Shown piece by piece: positions 1,459 through 8,281 of a stretch of 9,478 bases of DNA; positions within the stretch are counted from its first letter, which is position 1, and each line of letters opens with the position of its first letter. The notes under the pieces are model-generated. The model did no database searches. It had not been told where the DNA came from and was given only the letters and a program-made list of their open reading frames with translations. Position numbers and translations under genes: made by a program. Origin of the DNA: a virus (Duplodnaviria > Heunggongvirae > Uroviricota > Caudoviricetes); the IMG/VR virus record IMGVR_UViG_2648501186_000020; one strand, written 5' to 3'.

Positions 1459-2622
1459 TTACACATCATTAGTACCTTCCTTATTTTTTGACTGGGACAA
1501 ATTTGGGACCGATGGGTTCAGGATCGAGTCTATTTGCCGTGCGTGTTCGGTAAGGTGATTAGGTGCAAGGTGAGCATATCGACGAACCATTTCGATAGAC
1601 TCCCAGCCTCCCATTTCCTGTAACACTGACAACGGGACTCCGGCTTGAACCAGCCAACTTGCCCAGGTGTGTCTCAAGTCGTGAAATCTGAAATCATCAA
1701 TACCAGCCCGTCTCAGCGCCGCTTTCCAGGCTGTGTTTGCGTCATACCGCATCTTCCTTACTGTTGGCGCTTTCGTTCCGTCTGGTTTGGTACAGCTTTC
1801 CTTGTACACAAATACCCAACGGTGATGATTCCCGATTTGTTTTTTCAATACGCGACATGCAGTATCATTCAGCGCAACGCCAATTGCGCGGTTTGATTTA
1901 CTCTCTTCCGGGTTTATCCATGCCACCCGGCGCTGCATATCTATTTGTTGCCATTCAAGGTTGATGATGTTCGAGCGTCTTAAGCCTGTTGCCAGTGCAA
2001 ATTCAACAACAGACTTTAATGGCTCCGGACATTCATCAATCAGCCTTTGTGCTTCATGGGGCTCCAGCCAGCGGATCCGTTTATTCTTTGGTTGAGGCAC
2101 TTTAATAATTGGTGCCTTATCCAGCATTTTCCATTCACGCTCTGCGGCTCTTAGTAGGGCCTTTATAAATGAAAGATGCGTAGCCTTCGTTGCAACGGAC
2201 GCTGGTTTTGGCGTGTATTCTGGAACAGGTTTCCCTTTTTTTCTGCATGCTTCTGCCCTGAGTTTCCAGTTTTCCTCATGACGCCGGTTCGTCATTTTCT
2301 GCATTGCTGAATAAATTTTTGATTCAGTAATGTCTCTTAGTTGCATTCCTGCGAAATGTTGAAGCCAGAATCCGATCCGGCTTTTGTCATCGTCCAGTGA
2401 TTTTTTATGTGCTTTCTCTTCAAGCCACCTGACACAAGCTTCCTCGAACGTTATATCAGGTATTTCACCAAGTTTGCTGACCCGCCATGCTTCAGCCTTT
2501 AGCTTGTCATGGAGTTCTGTCGCCTGCCTTTTGTCCTTTGTTCCAAGAGACTGTTTAAATCTTTTACCGTTCGGCAATGTGAAACTGGCGTACCATATTT
2601 CACCTCTGCGGAAGAGTGACAT
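1459..2622 (-). CDS. int: Phage tyrosine integrase, P22-like, 387 aa
   Basis: ORF begins [14 protein letters not shown] (typical arm-binding N-terminus). C-terminal catalytic region has HDLRHTWAS (HxxR) and RRYAHL (Tyr). Stop lies 15 bp from the 3' end of thrW, the known P22 attachment site. Length matches P22 Int (387 aa) from memory. Confidence 0.92.
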
Positions 2623-4043: not shown

Positions 4044-4168
4044 TTTGTTCTCCACGTATATGCGCTGCACCGCGCTGAATTCCGGTAAAAGGAAGCCCTC
4101 ACCGTCCGGCGATTATTGAGTCAATTACATTTCCATAAATGCCCCCGTAGGGGCGGTTAGTTTCTCCA

Positions 4169-4255
4169 CAAAACAGAGAAGAACACCTGCGGTGGCAGCC
4201 GCCCGGATGGATTGGGTTATGAGCCCGTCGTCCGGTGATGCTCTTCTCTGTTTTG
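4169..4255. repeat. Perfect 14-bp inverted repeat CAAAACAGAGAAGA / TCTTCTCTGTTTTG enclosing a 59-nt GC-rich loop
   Basis: Read directly from the sequence. Arms are exact reverse complements. The loop contains further short complementary segments (GCGG/CCGC, CCGG/CCGG). Confidence 0.85.
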
Positions 4256-4523
4256 TAAAAAGGACGGTACCAGCCGGAAGCAAGGGTACAAGCTGGTACC
4301 GCCAAGACTACACACAGCATAAAGTTGTGGTGCCGGGTGCCTCCCGGTGCCTGGCGAAGGTTGCACACCAGGCGGGTGGGTATCCACAGAAGGTCGACTG
4401 TCAGCCTCAACCTTAACCCGCGTGCGCTGAGCCGCATTCACCACAACGCTAAGGATTCTCTCTGGTTGAAAATACTTAGCTGTTATGTGCCTGCTTTTAG
4501 CCACATCAGGCGAGGTGGACCTA

Positions 4524-4572
4524 GTTATTCCCCAACAACAAGGATTCGGTTAATCTGGTTATCCCCAACAAC
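4524..4572 (+). repeat. Two direct repeats GTTAT(T)CCCCAACAAC, 34 bp apart, immediately upstream of the orf144 RBS; a third degenerate copy (CCACAACGCTAAGGATTC) lies at 4441-4458
   Basis: Copies at 4524-4539 and 4558-4572. The AAGGATTC...CTGGTT context also recurs at 4451-4468 and 4540-4560. Confidence 0.7.
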
Positions 4573-4587
4573 GCAAAAGGAAAAGAA

Positions 4588-5022
4588 ATGTCCGGTAATA
4601 TCTATACGCTGTACAAATCCCACTGTGAAAATGTTGGAAAGTATCGGGGCATTGAAATCAGTGGGGTAGTGTCATCAGTCGAAATAAGCAAAGTTGAATC
4701 AAGGGCAACATTACTTACTCTTTTGGACCTTGTCTTACATGAGCACCGGAAGAAATTCGGCACTCCCTATAATCAGTTGAATGGGAAAAAGGCTCTGGTT
4801 CACCTTATTCTGATGAAGCATCACTGGATGCCAAAACAGATTAATGAGATGAAATTTGATGAACTTCTTCTTTCAATTCAGGATGAACTCACACTTGATA
4901 AAATAAGCGTAACCGCCCAGAAATTTTTAGATTATCGAGACTGGAGATCACAAATTCATCATTTTGATGATTTTGACGAAAATGAATGGGATCCTAATTT
5001 GTCTGCACAATATCTAAAGTAA
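4588..5022 (+). CDS. Orphan hypothetical protein, 144 aa, transcribed opposite to the flanking phage early-left operon
   Basis: ATG preceded by SD AAGGA (4577-4581) with 6-nt spacer. Protein-like composition with His/Lys-rich centre (HEHRKKF, MKHHWMPK) and acidic C-terminus (HHFDDFDENEWDP). A plus-strand intrinsic terminator follows at 5260-5285. No family recognised. Confidence 0.75.
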   Translation: MSGNIYTLYKSHCENVGKYRGIEISGVVSSVEISKVESRATLLTLLDLVLHEHRKKFGTPYNQLNGKKALVHLILMKHHWMPKQINEMKFDELLLSIQDELTLDKISVTAQKFLDYRDWRSQIHHFDDFDENEWDPNLSAQYLK

Positions 5023-5200
5023 CATCCTGTGATAAAACCGTGATTTCCTGATCCAGTTTTTTTAAGGAGTCTATTGTTTCCTGTCGATAAGACAGCACTT
5101 CACGAAGCTGGTTTATAGCTGCCAGCTTCTTTGTCATCCACTCATAAATTTCCTCATCTGTGTAGCCAGGCGCGACGATTTTGGGTTCTGTTTTGTGCAT
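4994..5200 (-). CDS. Small hypothetical protein, 68 aa; first gene downstream of PL
   Basis: ATG at 5200 with strong SD GAGGAG and 7-nt spacer. The track's longer form uses an upstream TTG. Stop TAG at 4994-4996 overlaps the 3' end of orf144 by 29 bp (convergent). No arginine-rich N-like motif; mid-region may be helical (AAINQLREVLSYRQETIDSLKKLDQEI). Confidence 0.6.
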   Translation of the reverse strand: MHKTEPKIVAPGYTDEEIYEWMTKKLAAINQLREVLSYRQETIDSLKKLDQEITVLSQDVTLDIVQTN

Positions 5201-5245
5201 TTCACATCTCCTCAAGTTATCAGTTACTTGTTGATGGGGACCAGA

Positions 5246-5257
5246 TTGTTAAAGAGC
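5246..5257 (-). promoter_or_regulatory. boxA-like element (GCTCTTTAACAA on the minus strand) in the PL leader, 2 nt downstream of a hairpin
   Basis: Minus-strand reading AGCGCCCTACAGGACGCT-TA-GCTCTTTAACAATCTGG. The 12-mer matches the rrn / lambdoid nut boxA consensus as I recall it. Position is between PL and the first PL gene. Confidence 0.4.
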
Positions 5258-5259
5258 TA

Positions 5260-5285
5260 AGCGTCCTGTAGGGCGCTTTTTTGTT
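5260..5285 (+). terminator. Rho-independent terminator, plus strand (likely ends the orf144 transcript)
   Basis: Stem AGCGTCC / GGGCGCT (7 bp including one G-U), loop TGTA, followed by TTTTTTGTTG. The same hairpin on the minus-strand transcript is the one adjacent to the boxA-like element. Confidence 0.55.
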
Positions 5286-5367
5286 GCTAACGAATCATCC
5301 TGGACTTCATATGCCCCAGGCGGCTACTTCGTGGGCGTCCTGCCTGTTCGTTGTTTCGCTTGGGTAC

Positions 5368-5395
5368 ATTATGTATCTCAAAGGTACATTGTCAA
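5368..5395 (-). promoter_or_regulatory. PL-like sigma70 promoter with overlapping operator (OL)
   Basis: Minus strand reads TTGACA (5395-5390), 16-nt spacer, CATAAT (5373-5368). Palindrome TACAT-T-ATGTA (5365-5375) overlaps the -10. GGTACA half-sites at 5363-5368 and 5383-5388 resemble the OR half-sites. Confidence 0.6.
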
Positions 5396-5434: not shown

Positions 5435-6109
5435 TTAGGCTTTGATTTTGTATCTTCTTGGTTTTCCTGAGAAAATCACTGTACCAATTATAGAGCAATT
5501 ACCGTTGATCTTAATGTAAGGCTCAGGCCAGTTTGGGTTTAACGCTTTGAGATAACGCTGTGTCCCATCTTCTATCAACCTTTTGAAGGTGGTTTCACCT
5601 GTATCGTGCATCAATGCAATAACGTCGTCACCGTGGCAGGCAGGTACTTCAGGATCGACAAAAATCATGTCTCCCGGGCGGTACTCATCAATCATTGAAT
5701 CACCTATCACCCGCAAGATATAAGTCATTTCCCCACAGGGTACAGGGCAGGGATACGTTTCTGCTGTGCTCAAATCAACCTCAGAATATCCAACTTCTTT
5801 CCATGCTCCGGCCTGTACCCATGATATGACAGGGACTAATGTGATTTGTTTATTAGTGATTGAAACATCAGGTTTTTTTGTGATGTTCGTTGTCTGGTGT
5901 TCTTGATCGAGCCATCCGACAGGCAGGTCGAAACATTTTTCGATGTGTCGTGCCATGCTGTCACCGATATTTTTAGTAGCACCATCTCCCATAAACCTGC
6001 TGGTCTGGGTTGGCTCGCGATCAATCATAGTGGCAAAGGAAGAATTCCCGCCAACACCATCTCTCAGTTTTCTGGCGTTAGACCGCCGGATGTCATGGAT
6101 TGTTTTCAT
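5435..6109 (-). CDS. cI: Prophage repressor, CI / C2-like, 224 aa (N-terminal HTH, C-terminal S24 LexA-like autopeptidase)
   Basis: C-terminal VIGDSMIDEYRPGDMIFVD contains the S24 Ser motif; TFKRL supplies the Lys. Candidate Ala-Gly cleavage site in WVQAGAW. Divergent from a cro-like gene across an operator-rich spacer. Confidence 0.88.
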   Translation of the reverse strand: MKTIHDIRRSNARKLRDGVGGNSSFATMIDREPTQTSRFMGDGATKNIGDSMARHIEKCFDLPVGWLDQEHQTTNITKKPDVSITNKQITLVPVISWVQAGAWKEVGYSEVDLSTAETYPCPVPCGEMTYILRVIGDSMIDEYRPGDMIFVDPEVPACHGDDVIALMHDTGETTFKRLIEDGTQRYLKALNPNWPEPYIKINGNCSIIGTVIFSGKPRRYKIKA

Positions 6110-7330: not shown

Positions 7331-7350
7331 AGGTCGGTCATGAGCACTAA
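7129..7350 (+). CDS. Alternative small ORF, 73 aa, mutually exclusive with 6992..7330 over most of its length
   Basis: More protein-like composition ([34 protein letters not shown]). Ends 11 nt into the O-like gene. No obvious SD at its ATG. Confidence 0.3.
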
Positions 7351-8281
7351 ATTAACCGGCTATGTATGGGATGGTTGCGCAGCGTCAGGCATGAAATTAT
7401 CCAGCGTGGCAATTATGGCCCGCTTGGCTGATTTCAGTAATGACGAAGGTGTGTGCTGGCCATCAATTGAAACCATTGCCCGCCAGATTGGCGCGGGGAT
7501 GAGTACCGTCAGAACGGCTATCGCACGGCTGGAAGCAGAAGGCTGGTTAACGCGTAAGGCGCGTCGCCAGGGTAACCGCAATGCGTCGAATGTTTATCAG
7601 CTTAACGTTGCGAAGCTTCAGGCAGCGGCATTTTCTCAACTGTCAGATTCTGACCCGTCAAAATCTGACGTATCAAAATCTGACCCGTCAAAATTTGATG
7701 CGTCGAAATCTGGCAAAAAAGCGGGTTTTCACCCGTCAGAATCTGGCGGGGATCCGTCAGTAAAATCAAAACATGATCCGTCAGATAAAAAACCTTCTCG
7801 TCCGGACGCTTCGCAACCGGACACGCAGACGGCTGAACAGGATTTTTTAACTCGCCATCCTGATGCGGTTGTATTCAGCCCTAAAAAGCGCCAGTGGGGA
7901 ACGCAGGATGATTTGACCTGCGCACAGTGGCTCTGGAAAAAAATCATTGCCCTGTACGAGCAGGCCGCCGAATGTGACGGCGAGGTGGTTCGTCCCAAAG
8001 AACCGAACTGGACAGCATGGGCAAACGAAATTCGCCTGATGTGTGTGCAGGATGGTCGTACTCACAAACAAATCTGCGAGATGTACAGCCGCGTCAGCCG
8101 CGATCCGTTCTGGTGCCGTAACGTGCTCAGCCCGTCGAAGTTGCGGGAAAAATGGGATGAGCTTTCCCTGCGCTTATCGCCGTCCGTCAGCACGCACACA
8201 GAAAAACGTGAAGACCCGTACTTCAAAGCCAGTTACGACAACGTGGACTACAGCCAGATCCCGGCAGGATTCAGGGGGTGA
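7340..8281 (+). CDS. Replication initiation protein, lambda O-like (N-terminal HTH, repeat linker, C-terminal domain), 313 aa
   Basis: SD AGAGG with 6-nt spacer. N-terminus has the replication-initiator-type HTH (SVAIMARLADFSNDEGVCWPSIETIARQIGAGMSTVRTAIARLEAEGWL). Internal iterons encode a DPSKSD repeat linker. Sits at the O position after cro and the cII-position gene. Confidence 0.82.
   Translation: MSTKLTGYVWDGCAASGMKLSSVAIMARLADFSNDEGVCWPSIETIARQIGAGMSTVRTAIARLEAEGWLTRKARRQGNRNASNVYQLNVAKLQAAAFSQLSDSDPSKSDVSKSDPSKFDASKSGKKAGFHPSESGGDPSVKSKHDPSDKKPSRPDASQPDTQTAEQDFLTRHPDAVVFSPKKRQWGTQDDLTCAQWLWKKIIALYEQAAECDGEVVRPKEPNWTAWANEIRLMCVQDGRTHKQICEMYSRVSRDPFWCRNVLSPSKLREKWDELSLRLSPSVSTHTEKREDPYFKASYDNVDYSQIPAGFRG
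7652..7792 (+). repeat. Putative replication origin iterons inside the O-like gene: four in-frame tandem 15-bp repeats (7652-7711) plus three more spaced CCGTCAG copies
   Basis: GACCCGTCAAAATCT / GACGTATCAAAATCT / GACCCGTCAAAATTT / GATGCGTCGAAATCT, then CCGTCAGAATCTGG (7733-7746), CCGTCAGTAAAATC (7755-7768), CCGTCAGATAAAAA (7778-7791). Analogous to lambda ori inside gene O. Confidence 0.6.

Follow-up and report, generated by a model that had tools for sequence, protein, structure and literature searches.

What lies between the PL-like early-left promoter and yfdR in this prophage, and on which strand is it expressed? The interval is part of a 9,478-nucleotide stretch of tailed-phage DNA (IMG/VR record IMGVR_UViG_2648501186_000020; hereafter the window), and the original prediction had described 4141-5285 as an opposed orphan module in which a structured non-coding region, a 144-aa gene (orf144) and a terminator all run against PL. 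Instead of a single opposed module, the interval is best read as two transcription units that interleave. The best explanation, which we hold to be fairly probable and which draws on homology, strand, covariation, distribution and synteny, combines a sieB-type plus-strand cargo cassette with a minus-strand unit that would be driven from PL and would silence orf144 by antisense RNA.

Judged by gene content, the prophage is SfIV/SfV/CPS-53/ST64B-like with immunity of the ymfK/ymfT/ymfL type, and it lies at thrW (1369-1444), the sole tRNA called in the window by ARAGORN and Rfam. It is not the P22-like prophage that had been assumed, and the absence of abc/erf/kil/N is therefore not a replacement by the module; the genes actually missing in comparison with relatives are yfdP and yfdQ. 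The proposed PL was recovered as a PL-like promoter that closely follows the cI-like gene (5435-6109) with its terminator, and the gene order of the PL region is that of SfIV, SfV and ST64B.

5368-5395, minus strand: PL-like early-left promoter (TTGACA, 16 nt, CATAAT; 11 of 12 consensus positions)
5423-5404, minus strand: terminator of the cI-like gene (terminator scan)

The stretch next to orf144 (4141-4572) is, as predicted, non-coding, GC-rich and hairpin-dense. No supported ORF is found in 4071-4587, the GC content is 0.55 vs 0.35-0.43 in orf144, and the stretch folds far better than shuffled sequences, with -190.6 kcal/mol (z -6.1) on the minus strand and -168.3 kcal/mol (z -3.4) on the plus strand. 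A protein-coding reading was rejected, since neither a 112-aa ORF at 4099-4437 nor the 'frameshifted' pseudogene placed on the stretch by PGAP matched a family in four profile libraries. The view that the structured region runs on the orf144 strand is contradicted by the better fold, the only Rfam-like match, its U-tailed terminator and G-U pairs, all of which are on the minus strand. The stretch 4141-4477 falls outside the orf144 module and consists of minus-strand RNA genes, which sit upstream of yfdP/yfdR whatever the cargo. The part of the module that stands is a promoter-gene-terminator layout opposed to PL, at about 4526-5285, with a terminator that was found and a predicted promoter homologous to that of P22 sieB.

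4526-4563, plus strand: predicted orf144 promoter (homology with P22 Psie)
4588-5022, plus strand: orf144, an ECs1072-family phage-associated protein and the cargo of the cassette (ORF and NF033230 match)
5259-5285, plus strand: intrinsic terminator of the orf144 transcript (8-bp stem at 5259-5278, 4-nt loop, T6 tract)

orf144 is a real, conserved gene. Its ORF is intact and well initiated, with AAGGA 6 nt upstream of the ATG, in agreement with the first reading of the sequence. The protein had been thought to belong to no recognisable family, but it matches NCBIfam NF033230 (ECs1072) at 157.8 bits over residues 4-144 of 144, against a cut-off of 70, and is also assigned to PHROG 5286. Pfam gave no match, its SieB profile PF14163 included, which scores a genuine SieB cargo at 98 bits. 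A structural check yielded a confident model of an all-alpha, soluble protein and, in the structure search, no match to any known fold; the defence-model check returned no match among PADLOC-DB 2.0 models for orf144, orf68 or their neighbours. The literature searched contains no description of ECs1072 function. The family is present in 8% of complete E. coli genomes, its genes always being single opposed genes at PL-proximal or Q-holin slots, and one relative is a chromosomal singleton outside any prophage. The Sakai homologue, ECs1072, has been detected on arrays in uninduced culture. The plus-strand terminator, placed originally at 5260-5285, was found as a stem at 5259-5278 followed by the T-tract; the stem contains a U-G pair on the plus strand only, which on the other strand would be C-A. 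In locus L144 another cassette comes straight after this terminator.

The 100 nt upstream of orf144 are homologous to the promoter and leader of P22 sieB. The P22 record NC_002371 annotates a sieB promoter (L260 939-969) and a sieB RNA start site (976), and it is this annotated region that the leader of orf144, together with a near-invariant element termed E1, matches. By homology the transcript would start at about 4563, giving a 5' UTR of about 25 nt with the Shine-Dalgarno sequence AAGGA at 4578-4582. The Psie-equivalent hexamers are weak (TATTCC, the -35 equivalent at 4526-4531, and GTTAAT, with the -10 region GTTAATCT at 4549-4556) and were missed by the consensus promoter scan, so that we infer the activity of the promoter here from a position homologous to the mapped P22 promoter. 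By eye, no sigma-32, sigma-54, sigma-E or sigma-28 motif fits at E1 or at the neighbouring hairpin hp2, and E1 as a CRP-like site was rejected for its half-site spacing.

The minus strand carries, in order from PL, a small protein gene and a series of RNA elements.

4994-5200, minus strand: orf68, a YdfC-like small protein, first gene after PL (ORF; RBS GAGGAG)
4478-4592, minus strand: sas-type antisense RNA region (homology with P22 sas: 80% identity, 106 aligned nt)
about 4519-4545, minus strand: hairpin hp2, within the sas-type region
4489-4518, minus strand: near-invariant element E1, within the sas-type region
4254-4477, minus strand: STnc100/PasD-like structured sRNA (Rfam RF02076 match)
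stem about 4303-4263 with U-tract 4262-4257, minus strand: intrinsic terminator of the STnc100-like RNA (U-tailed hairpin)
4140-4256, minus strand: conserved RNA termed unit 2 (20-25-bp stem topped by a three-way junction, then a small GC hairpin at 4155-4140)
4214-4230, minus strand: apical hairpin of unit 2, CGACGGGCUCAUAACCC (local alignment to tRNA-fMet)

With these assignments, the claim that the interval fits no described system does not hold for 4254-4592, nor for the family name of the protein.

The sas RNA of P22 has been defined by RNA-seq as a 127-nt species (PMC13397905 Table 2). In its published form it is exactly complementary to the part of P22 that holds the sieB promoter and RNA start, and its alignment with window positions 4592-4478 includes E1. 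The corresponding region of the window is complementary to the AUG (4588-4590), the Shine-Dalgarno sequence, the 5' UTR and the promoter of orf144. Taken alone, it is not more stable than shuffled sequences (z +1.25), and Rfam holds no family for the sas-type RNA. Beside the sas region neither P22 nor the window has a good promoter on the minus strand, the window offering just one candidate, a 9/12 site at 4834-4807; in P22, sas reportedly derives from PL transcription, and the same origin is suggested here. The antisense reading is supported by hp2, which in the window forms a hairpin on the minus strand only. Of 70 distinct hp2 regions, 60 fold more stably as the minus strand (mean -8.9 vs -6.9 kcal/mol, p 7e-9), and there are 59 G-U pairs on that strand vs 20 on the plus strand. 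When the arms of hp2 were swapped among 33 distinct arm types as a test of covariation, the native hairpins averaged -8.9 and the chimeras -5.9 kcal/mol (p 4e-19). Per-sequence folding, the strand test and the arm-swap test were used in place of RNAalifold, which recovered only the invariant E1 stem from 37 hp2+E1 sequences because MAFFT had put arms of different lengths out of register. An H-type pseudoknot formed by E1 on the plus strand was superseded by the sas homology; its stems are invariant, and hence offer no covariation, and are also fixed by the search pattern.

The STnc100-like RNA matches RF02076 over model positions 1-206 at 43.4 bits (E 6e-7), which is below the gathering score of 47 and below the 51-101 bits of bona fide STnc100 copies, and homologues in SfII, SfV, PhiR29, ST64B and Kp4882 score 35-42 bits. 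Its architecture is full-length, comprising a leader, a multiloop core closed by UGGUG/CACCA with the identical 20-nt motif CCGGGAGGCACCCGGCACCA, and an intrinsic terminator; the 20-nt motif is multi-copy across Enterobacteriaceae. Members of the STnc100/PasD family usually lie in the Q-stx-esterase-lysis late region, whereas the copy in the window, for all its end-to-end covariance-model match, lies in the early-left operon. The sas element E1 is found upstream of only 3 of 129 STnc100-core copies, and a single obligatory RNA composed of sas and STnc100 was accordingly rejected as a general rule. A scan revealed no convincing sigma-70 promoter for either RNA and no promoter-like site upstream of 4477. 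In ST64B the equivalent early-left leader is transcribed, more than fivefold up in inducing conditions. A tRNA-like nature of the STnc100 core is speculation, which found no support from ARAGORN or the Rfam tRNA model.

The original prediction had all 1.1 kb running opposite to PL and took the ground downstream of orf144 for a 3' UTR; the interval also contains orf68 on the minus strand (5200-4994), which converges with orf144 with a 3' overlap of 29 nt, so that the 3' part of the orf144 transcript is antisense to it. orf68 belongs to PHROG 1744 (6e-35) and shares 39-41% identity over 66/68 residues (E 2e-9) with the annotated ydfC genes of the PPompW and Evi phages; no curated Pfam or NCBIfam model matched. 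In four other loci (L012, L013, L047 and L016), and likewise in 6 of 10 viral loci, homologues of orf68 are convergent to orf144-family genes.

The interval between cI and the early-left genes is, as anticipated, a variable hotspot. The same slot holds other genes in SfV, SfII, PhiR29, mEp460, Klebsiella phage Kp4882 and a Hafnia phage, and sieB itself is among the cargo. A 31-nt cassette signature, GCCTG...CCAC(A/T)TCAGGC...GTGG, marks at least 120 viral loci. In these the sas-type element is separated from the start codon downstream of it by 36-40 or about 70 nt, and the cargo ORFs form at least 32 clusters (SieB in at least 19, the orf144 family in at least 11). At least 30 unrelated families of small cargo genes follow the sas-type element in viral contigs; most are unannotated, and a function is known for SieB only. 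In the literature searched we found no description of a sas-type leader common to many cargo genes.

These elements suggest the following working of the locus. On the plus strand, the Psie-like promoter and leader would drive orf144, with the transcript ending at 5259-5285. On the minus strand, transcription from PL would yield in turn orf68, an RNA antisense to orf144 ending in the sas homologue, the STnc100/PasD-like sRNA, unit 2 and yfdR-xis-int. In the lysogen, the cI-like repressor would shut PL, and orf144 would be made from its own promoter, as SieB is. Upon induction, or infection by a phage of the same type, transcription from PL would produce the sas-type antisense RNA, which would pair with the 5' end of orf144 and stop its translation; the YdfC-like protein, the first to be made from PL, may additionally neutralise Orf144. 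Because of this proposed shut-off, Orf144 would most likely be an effector of the exclusion or abortive-infection type, turned off for the phage's own lytic growth. Since Orf144 lacks similarity to SieB, to PADLOC models and to known folds, an exclusion function is suggested by analogy of context alone. The STnc100-like RNA and unit 2, both widespread in this phage lineage, would be independent RNA modules at which the early-left transcript is terminated or processed and which also serve as its sRNAs.

The closest known system is sieB/esc/sas of P22, reportedly a superinfection-exclusion module. In both loci the gene is opposed and close to PL; the promoters and leaders are homologous, and so are the antisense regions (80%, 106 nt), which cover the Shine-Dalgarno sequence and the AUG. 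Both leaders also have an architecture of E1 plus two copies of CCCC(A/T)ACA(A/G)C. They differ in that orf144 is unrelated to SieB and its product is predicted to be soluble and all-alpha rather than a membrane protein, in the convergent YdfC-like gene of the window, and in what follows the antisense element, namely the STnc100-like RNA here and ral in P22. ydfC belongs to the dicB operon of Qin (ydfA-ydfB-ydfC-dicF-dicB), which is likewise said to combine a small RNA downstream of a ydfC-type gene with a repressor-controlled early-left operon in a defective lambdoid prophage. The RNAs of the window have neither sequence nor Rfam similarity to DicF, and their maturation by processing is putative. 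Morons are reportedly promoter-gene-terminator inserts in lambdoid phages, and BstA/aba is a prophage defence gene with self-immunity (PMC8585504). The present cassette shares with them an autonomous promoter, gene and terminator, a presence that varies among close relatives and a proposed built-in self-escape. It would differ from BstA/aba in that self-silencing is effected by a portable antisense RNA plus promoter element and not by a DNA motif, and any defence activity of orf144 is putative.

Other explanations of the same data have to be weighed. That 4141-5285 forms one plus-strand unit, with 4141-4572 serving orf144 as an RNA partner or as a long, structured 5' leader (riboswitch-like or toxin-antitoxin-like, for example), is highly improbable. 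The structured region does directly abut orf144, which it adjoins in 410 of the 415 orf144-bearing E. coli genomes, and a Superficieibacter relative of orf144 also adjoins three STnc100 copies, but the two do not always travel together, as had been suggested for checking: among 5426 E. coli genomes, 2788 have the RNAs and 421 have orf144, and about 2400 E. coli genomes and many phages carry the RNAs without orf144. Moreover, the folding, G-U pairs, Rfam match and U-tailed terminator all speak for the other strand, the sas element rarely accompanies STnc100 cores, and the orf144 transcript start set by homology lies past the whole structured region. It is somewhat less improbable, yet still unlikely, that the conservation of E1 and hp2 reflects a signal in the plus-strand DNA or RNA rather than an antisense RNA, either a promoter with an upstream activator site or a 5'-UTR element that hides the Shine-Dalgarno sequence when transcripts read through, on the pattern of IS10 fold-back inhibition. 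E1 occupies -74 to -44 relative to the mapped start of sieB in P22, is readable in single-copy cassettes as a -35 TT(C/A/T)ACC followed after 16 nt by an extended -10 TGGTATNCT, and comes straight after a terminator in L144, and one arm of hp2 overlaps the Shine-Dalgarno sequence. Against these points stand the greater stability of the antisense hairpin with its threefold excess of G-U pairs, and the abundant RNA detected in P22, which is the antisense one and spans exactly E1 and hp2 (PMC13397905). The two readings of E1/hp2 are not mutually exclusive.

The most serious alternative, which we rate as a real possibility and less probable than the favoured reading, is that the RNAs encoded on the minus strand at 4477-4140 work autonomously as sRNAs of the Hfq type, regulating host genes in trans in the way proposed for PasD/STnc100 and functionally unconnected with orf144. 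PasD is Hfq-bound, visible on northern blots and related to STnc100 (bioRxiv 10.64898/2026.05.13.724894), the window copy has its own U-tailed terminator, and the family is very widely distributed and multi-copy. The sub-threshold RF02076 score and the lack of a promoter-like site upstream of 4477 weigh against it, as does the literature, in which no target was found for any family member. This alternative is compatible with the main explanation, in which these RNAs are independent modules. A weaker contender, possible but rather doubtful, makes orf144 and orf68 a regulatory or toxin/antidote pair serving the prophage's own lysis-lysogeny or host-takeover programme and not anti-phage defence. 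It is favoured by the convergent, 3'-overlapping pair being conserved in 11 contexts at 30-40% identity, one late-operon context included, by the company of ydfC with dicF and dicB in Qin and by the absence of a defence-model match. It is disfavoured by orf144 relatives that have no YdfC-like gene (L011, L014/15), by YdfC-like genes that occur without orf144, and by a cassette common to sieB, a known exclusion gene. If the favoured explanation, cassette plus antisense silencing, is true, sieB/sas of P22 is no one-off but represents a portable cassette for expression and self-silencing, the signature of which becomes a sequence handle for lysogen-expressed prophage genes that their phage must switch off. 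Such cargo would be candidate exclusion, abortive-infection or host-modifying effectors, each directly testable, and the ECs1072 family would gain a testable regulatory context and, in the YdfC-like protein, a candidate partner.

Unit 2, the last of the minus-strand RNAs, directly precedes the next gene, which is yfdR in the window and yfdP in relatives, and is found at 93-94% identity in Stx2a/Stx2c phages and mEp460. Its minimum free energy is -58.2 kcal/mol (z -6.15), and RNAalifold on 19 variants returned 32 pairs, 6 of them with compensatory double changes, and several G-U pairs. The apical hairpin, near-invariant across variants, matches the anticodon arm of the E. coli initiator tRNA-fMet at 16/17 bases in the same hairpin register, with the same three G-C pairs and CUCAUAA loop, a score reached by 2 of 2000 shuffles, which is modest statistical support; the tRNA sequence used in the comparison was confirmed to be tRNA-Met, present in a median of 4 copies per genome. 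Unlike the tRNA, unit 2 has no acceptor, D or T arms, and its hairpin tops a 25-bp stem; neither ARAGORN nor the Rfam tRNA model calls it a tRNA, and the likeness is limited to the anticodon arm. It is conceivable, but improbable, that with unit 2 the phage mimics the anticodon arm of the initiator tRNA, presenting it on a long duplex that is freed from the early-left transcript and decoys or inhibits a factor that reads this arm, candidates being a VapC-type anticodon nuclease that cleaves tRNA-fMet, MetRS and the 30S P site with IF3. If so, it would be an RNA-based counter-defence or translation-takeover device of SfV-, ST64B- and Stx-type prophages. PGAP and phage annotations put spurious ORFs on the two conserved structured RNAs, which are present in about half of E. 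coli genomes.

In the window, the opposed gene orf144 is preceded by a homologue of the sieB promoter of phage P22 (Psie) and of sas, the P22 antisense RNA opposing sieB. The features of the interval are as follows.

4256-4140, minus strand: unit 2, a long-stem RNA
4477-4254, minus strand: STnc100-like RNA
4526-4563, plus strand: putative orf144 promoter, placed by positional homology with P22 (-35 equivalent 4526-4531; -10 region 4549-4556; start at about 4563)
4588-5022, plus strand: orf144, an intact ORF with a good RBS
5200-4994, minus strand: orf68, a YdfC-like gene
5259-5278, plus strand: terminator with a T6 tract, ending at 5285; a U-G pair is possible on the plus strand only
5395-5368, minus strand: early-left promoter (PL)-like promoter, 11/12 consensus positions matched

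The original prediction of a GC-rich non-coding stretch, a well-initiated orf144, a plus-strand terminator and PL holds for each of these features, and 4071-4587 is without a credible ORF and has a GC of 0.55, versus 0.35–0.43 in orf144. The prediction did not list orf68, and its assignment of the structured region to the orf144 module is wrong for 4141-4477. The structured stretch folds at -190.6 kcal/mol (z -6.1) on the minus strand and at -168.3 kcal/mol (z -3.4) on the plus strand, and three further features are confined to the minus strand: G-U pairing in the long stem, the one Rfam-like match (STnc100, 4477-4254) and the U-tailed terminator of that match. A 112-aa ORF (4099-4437) and a PGAP ‘frameshifted hypothetical protein’ gave no match in NCBIfam, Pfam, PHROGs or PADLOC. 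The latter (4099-4444, minus strand) overlies structured RNAs, as do SfIV_34/35, SfII_35 and mEp460_036 in the loci holding the SfIV, SfII and mEp460 records (L002, L003, L010); since family support is absent for every one of them, these ORFs are probably spurious gene calls.

With the SieB-type version of the element, BLAST found matches in lambda, HK620, P22 and many others, and the curated P22 record has a ‘sieB promoter’ and a ‘sieB RNA start site’ annotated exactly at the matched place. The near-invariant element E1 lies in P22 at -74 to -44 relative to the mapped sieB start. The sas RNA, 127 nt long by RNA-seq of infected cells (PMC13397905 Table 2), is exactly complementary to a P22 stretch that begins with E1, takes in the neighbouring hairpin hp2, Psie and the 5' UTR, and ends at the sieB AUG. 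The minus strand of window 4592-4478 can be aligned with it over its whole length (80% identity, 106 positions). Rfam has no family for sas. Two tests show that selection acts on hp2 as an antisense-strand RNA. Among 70 distinct regions, the antisense strand folds better in 60 (mean -8.9 vs. -6.9 kcal/mol, Wilcoxon p 7e-9), with 59 G-U pairs against 20 on the other strand, and native hairpins, at -8.9 kcal/mol, are more stable than chimeras whose arms were swapped across loci, at -5.9 kcal/mol (p 4e-19; 33 arm types). As for the plus strand, promoter activity at 4526-4563 is predicted from position; the hexamers are weak and were missed by a consensus scan. The window leader is duplicated, with GTTATTCCCCAACAAC (4524-4539) and GTTATCCCCAACAAC (4558-4572) 34 nt apart, the first copy bearing the -35 equivalent and the second forming the 5' UTR; P22 sieB likewise has a duplicated leader, GTACCCCTACAG and TCACCCCTACAG. 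The core intuition, an opposed moron of sieB type that the lysogen would express from a variable slot, was right, and it now has a homologous element with experimental characterisation to rest on.

The block at window 4480-4572 is common to phages with a different downstream gene, or cargo: Kp4882 and PhiR29 encode a 171–243-aa protein with a coiled coil and a zinc ribbon, and Hafnia phage Pocitis76 has sieB. A scan of IMG/VR for the block core (GCCTG, N9-16, CAC(A/T)TCAGGC, N3-4, GTGG) returned at least 120 loci. Across the matches listed, the 31-nt E1 (window 4489-4518) is almost invariant, and the arms of the following hp2 vary by locus with complementarity kept. A start codon lies 36–40 nt further on, or about 70 nt in loci with a duplicated leader such as the window's. 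The cargo ORFs among the matches listed fall into 32 unrelated clusters, including SieB (19), an 81-aa family (13), the zinc-ribbon family (12) and the orf144 family (11). For ten representative cargo proteins, only SieB exceeded a Pfam family cut-off, and none gave a convincing defence model. By its distribution, the sas/Psie element is a portable cassette serving dozens of uncharacterised cargo genes; our literature search found no paper describing it ahead of cargo other than sieB. This goes beyond prior knowledge, as do the recurrent orf144/YdfC-like pair and a tRNA-fMet-like hairpin, while the window's own contents are new members of already known kinds. At about 705 on the minus strand of comparison locus L144, the same terminator as at window 5230-5285 abuts another E1 cassette at zero distance, so cassettes can be arrayed head to tail. 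In single-copy cassettes (e.g. L177 and L195), E1 and the next bases are readable on the plus strand as -35 TT(C/A/T)ACC, 16 nt, and extended -10 TGGTATNCT, which would put the start within the hp2 loop; E1 may serve both strands.

Minus-strand 4477-4254 matches Rfam STnc100 (RF02076) end to end at 43.4 bits, below the gathering score of 47. STnc100 and PasD, two sRNAs of prophages that are related to each other, usually sit in the Q-stx-esterase-lysis region. The 20-nt STnc100 core motif occurs at no fewer than 120 places in Enterobacteriaceae species genomes, often in multiple or tandem copies, and bona fide members score 51–101 bits. Among 113 distinct sas-type loci listed, the same strand downstream carries the STnc100 core in 24, a UGUGUAGUCUUG-plus-terminator module in 19 and a tRNA gene in six, and E1 lies upstream of only 3 of 129 STnc100-core copies. 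Given these two proportions (24/113 and 3/129), the sas-type element and the STnc100-like RNA are independent modules, juxtaposed in the window's lineage. The six tRNA genes (five Arg, one Asn; L012 4759-4832, L174, L176, L190, L242 and L249) take the place of the STnc100-like RNA on the same strand, and the antisense RNA may therefore have its 3' end set by tRNA processing. In Superficieibacter electus (L047 6323-7018), three tandem bona fide STnc100 copies (72–92 bits) lie between holin and an orf144-family gene that again has a convergent YdfC-like ORF; STnc100 pairs in other genomes are spaced about 200–270 nt.

Unit 2 has a very stable fold (z -6.15), and its 25-bp stem is kept in 19 variants, among which six pairs show changes in both partners and several are G-U. 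It always lies directly before yfdP, or in the window before yfdR, and occurs at 93–94% identity in Stx2a/2c phages and mEp460. The hairpin at its apex, CGACGGGCUCAUAACCC, shares 16 of 17 bases, in the same register, with the anticodon arm of initiator tRNA-fMet. Statistically this is modest: 2 of 2000 shuffles scored as high, with no correction for how many tRNA species there are.

Orf144, thought at first to have no recognisable family, scores 157.8 bits (cut-off 70) against NCBIfam NF033230, ‘ECs1072 family phage-associated protein’, and also belongs to PHROG 5286. With the sieB promoter/sas homology and the STnc100-like match, this makes the earlier statement that nothing here could be placed in a described system out of date. 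An exhaustive HMMER search gave 65 family representatives at 50% clustering, all of about 145–155 aa. Across 51 aligned sequences, H72 and W134 never vary, and R54, L64, G66, A69 and W80 hardly do. Relatives are always lone genes opposed to the neighbouring phage operon, just downstream of cI/PL (L011, L012, L013) or in the Q-holin gap (L016/17, L047), and one is a chromosomal singleton with no prophage around it. The Sakai homologue ECs1072 gives an array signal in ordinary culture. Among 5426 complete E. coli genomes, some part of 4100-5300 is present in 2788, orf144 in 421 and the whole interval in 410.

Orf68 is 39–41% identical to genes annotated ydfC in PPompW-/Evi-type phages and is a member of PHROG 1744. 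Its homologues are convergent with the orf144-family gene and overlap the 3' end of that gene in L012 and L013 (32–39% identity), in the late region of the Superficieibacter prophage (L047), in L016, where the homologue is an uncalled ORF (HMM E 4e-6), and in 6 of 10 viral loci bearing an orf144 relative. Either gene can also occur without the other, for orf144 in a few cases; hence, the pairing is frequent but not obligatory.

From the observed homologies, strands, covariation, distribution and synteny, the following working can be proposed. In the lysogen, PL would be repressed, and orf144 transcription would start at the Psie-type promoter and stop at the 5285 terminator, giving a transcript antisense to orf68. 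Upon induction, transcription from PL would read orf68 and then run antisense through orf144, yielding a sas-type RNA that would mask the SD and start codon of orf144 in the way that sas acts on SieB; according to Ranade and Poteete in 1993, sas reportedly depends on the infecting phage's early transcription. Further on, ahead of yfdR-xis-int, PL transcription would run into the terminator of the STnc100-like RNA and the duplex of unit 2, plausibly an RNase III site. By analogy of context, Orf144 would be an exclusion or abortive-infection effector whose silencing the phage needs in order to grow, with the YdfC-like protein as a possible antidote comparable to Esc. In ST64B (L006), the corresponding early-left leader is transcribed. 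The published ncRNA STnc1310 (L006 2374-2447; D23580 2099207-2099280) is an RNA of its own, ended by a terminator, that lies downstream of PL and just upstream of the STnc100-like unit, so this leader comprises three successive terminator-ended RNA units. Peroxide or NO shock raises STnc1310 and the gene after it several-fold, along with the lytic genes.

The surroundings of the interval are as follows.

Window start: proA, before thrW
1369-1444: thrW, tRNA-Thr(CGT), after which the prophage begins
1459-2622, minus strand: int, with an xis-like gene next
Between the xis-like gene and the interval: yfdT-like, DUF551 and yfdR-like HD phosphohydrolase genes
5435-6109, minus strand: cI-like S24 repressor gene, beyond the interval
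After the cI-like gene: cro-like, ymfL-like and replication genes

The prophage shares 98–100% identity with Shigella phage SfIV and with prophages of many E. coli, and its gene order is collinear with SfV, SfII, PhiR29, mEp460 and Salmonella ST64B. On these grounds it is assigned by sequence to the SfV/CPS-53/ST64B type, with e14-type immunity, and not to the P22-like phages, as had been supposed. Compared with its closest kin, it is missing yfdP and yfdQ (DUF2303), which lie between unit 2 and yfdR in SfIV, SfV, PhiR29, mEp460 and ST64B (window 4070-4140 against L002 2597-4000). A sub-threshold Rfam match to mir-5880 at 7641-7715 (31 bits vs. a gathering score of 97) is in reality an array of TCTGAC / CGTCAAAAT repeats, located within the gene for the replication protein (7340-8281); these look like ori iterons within an O-like gene, in the fashion of lambda.
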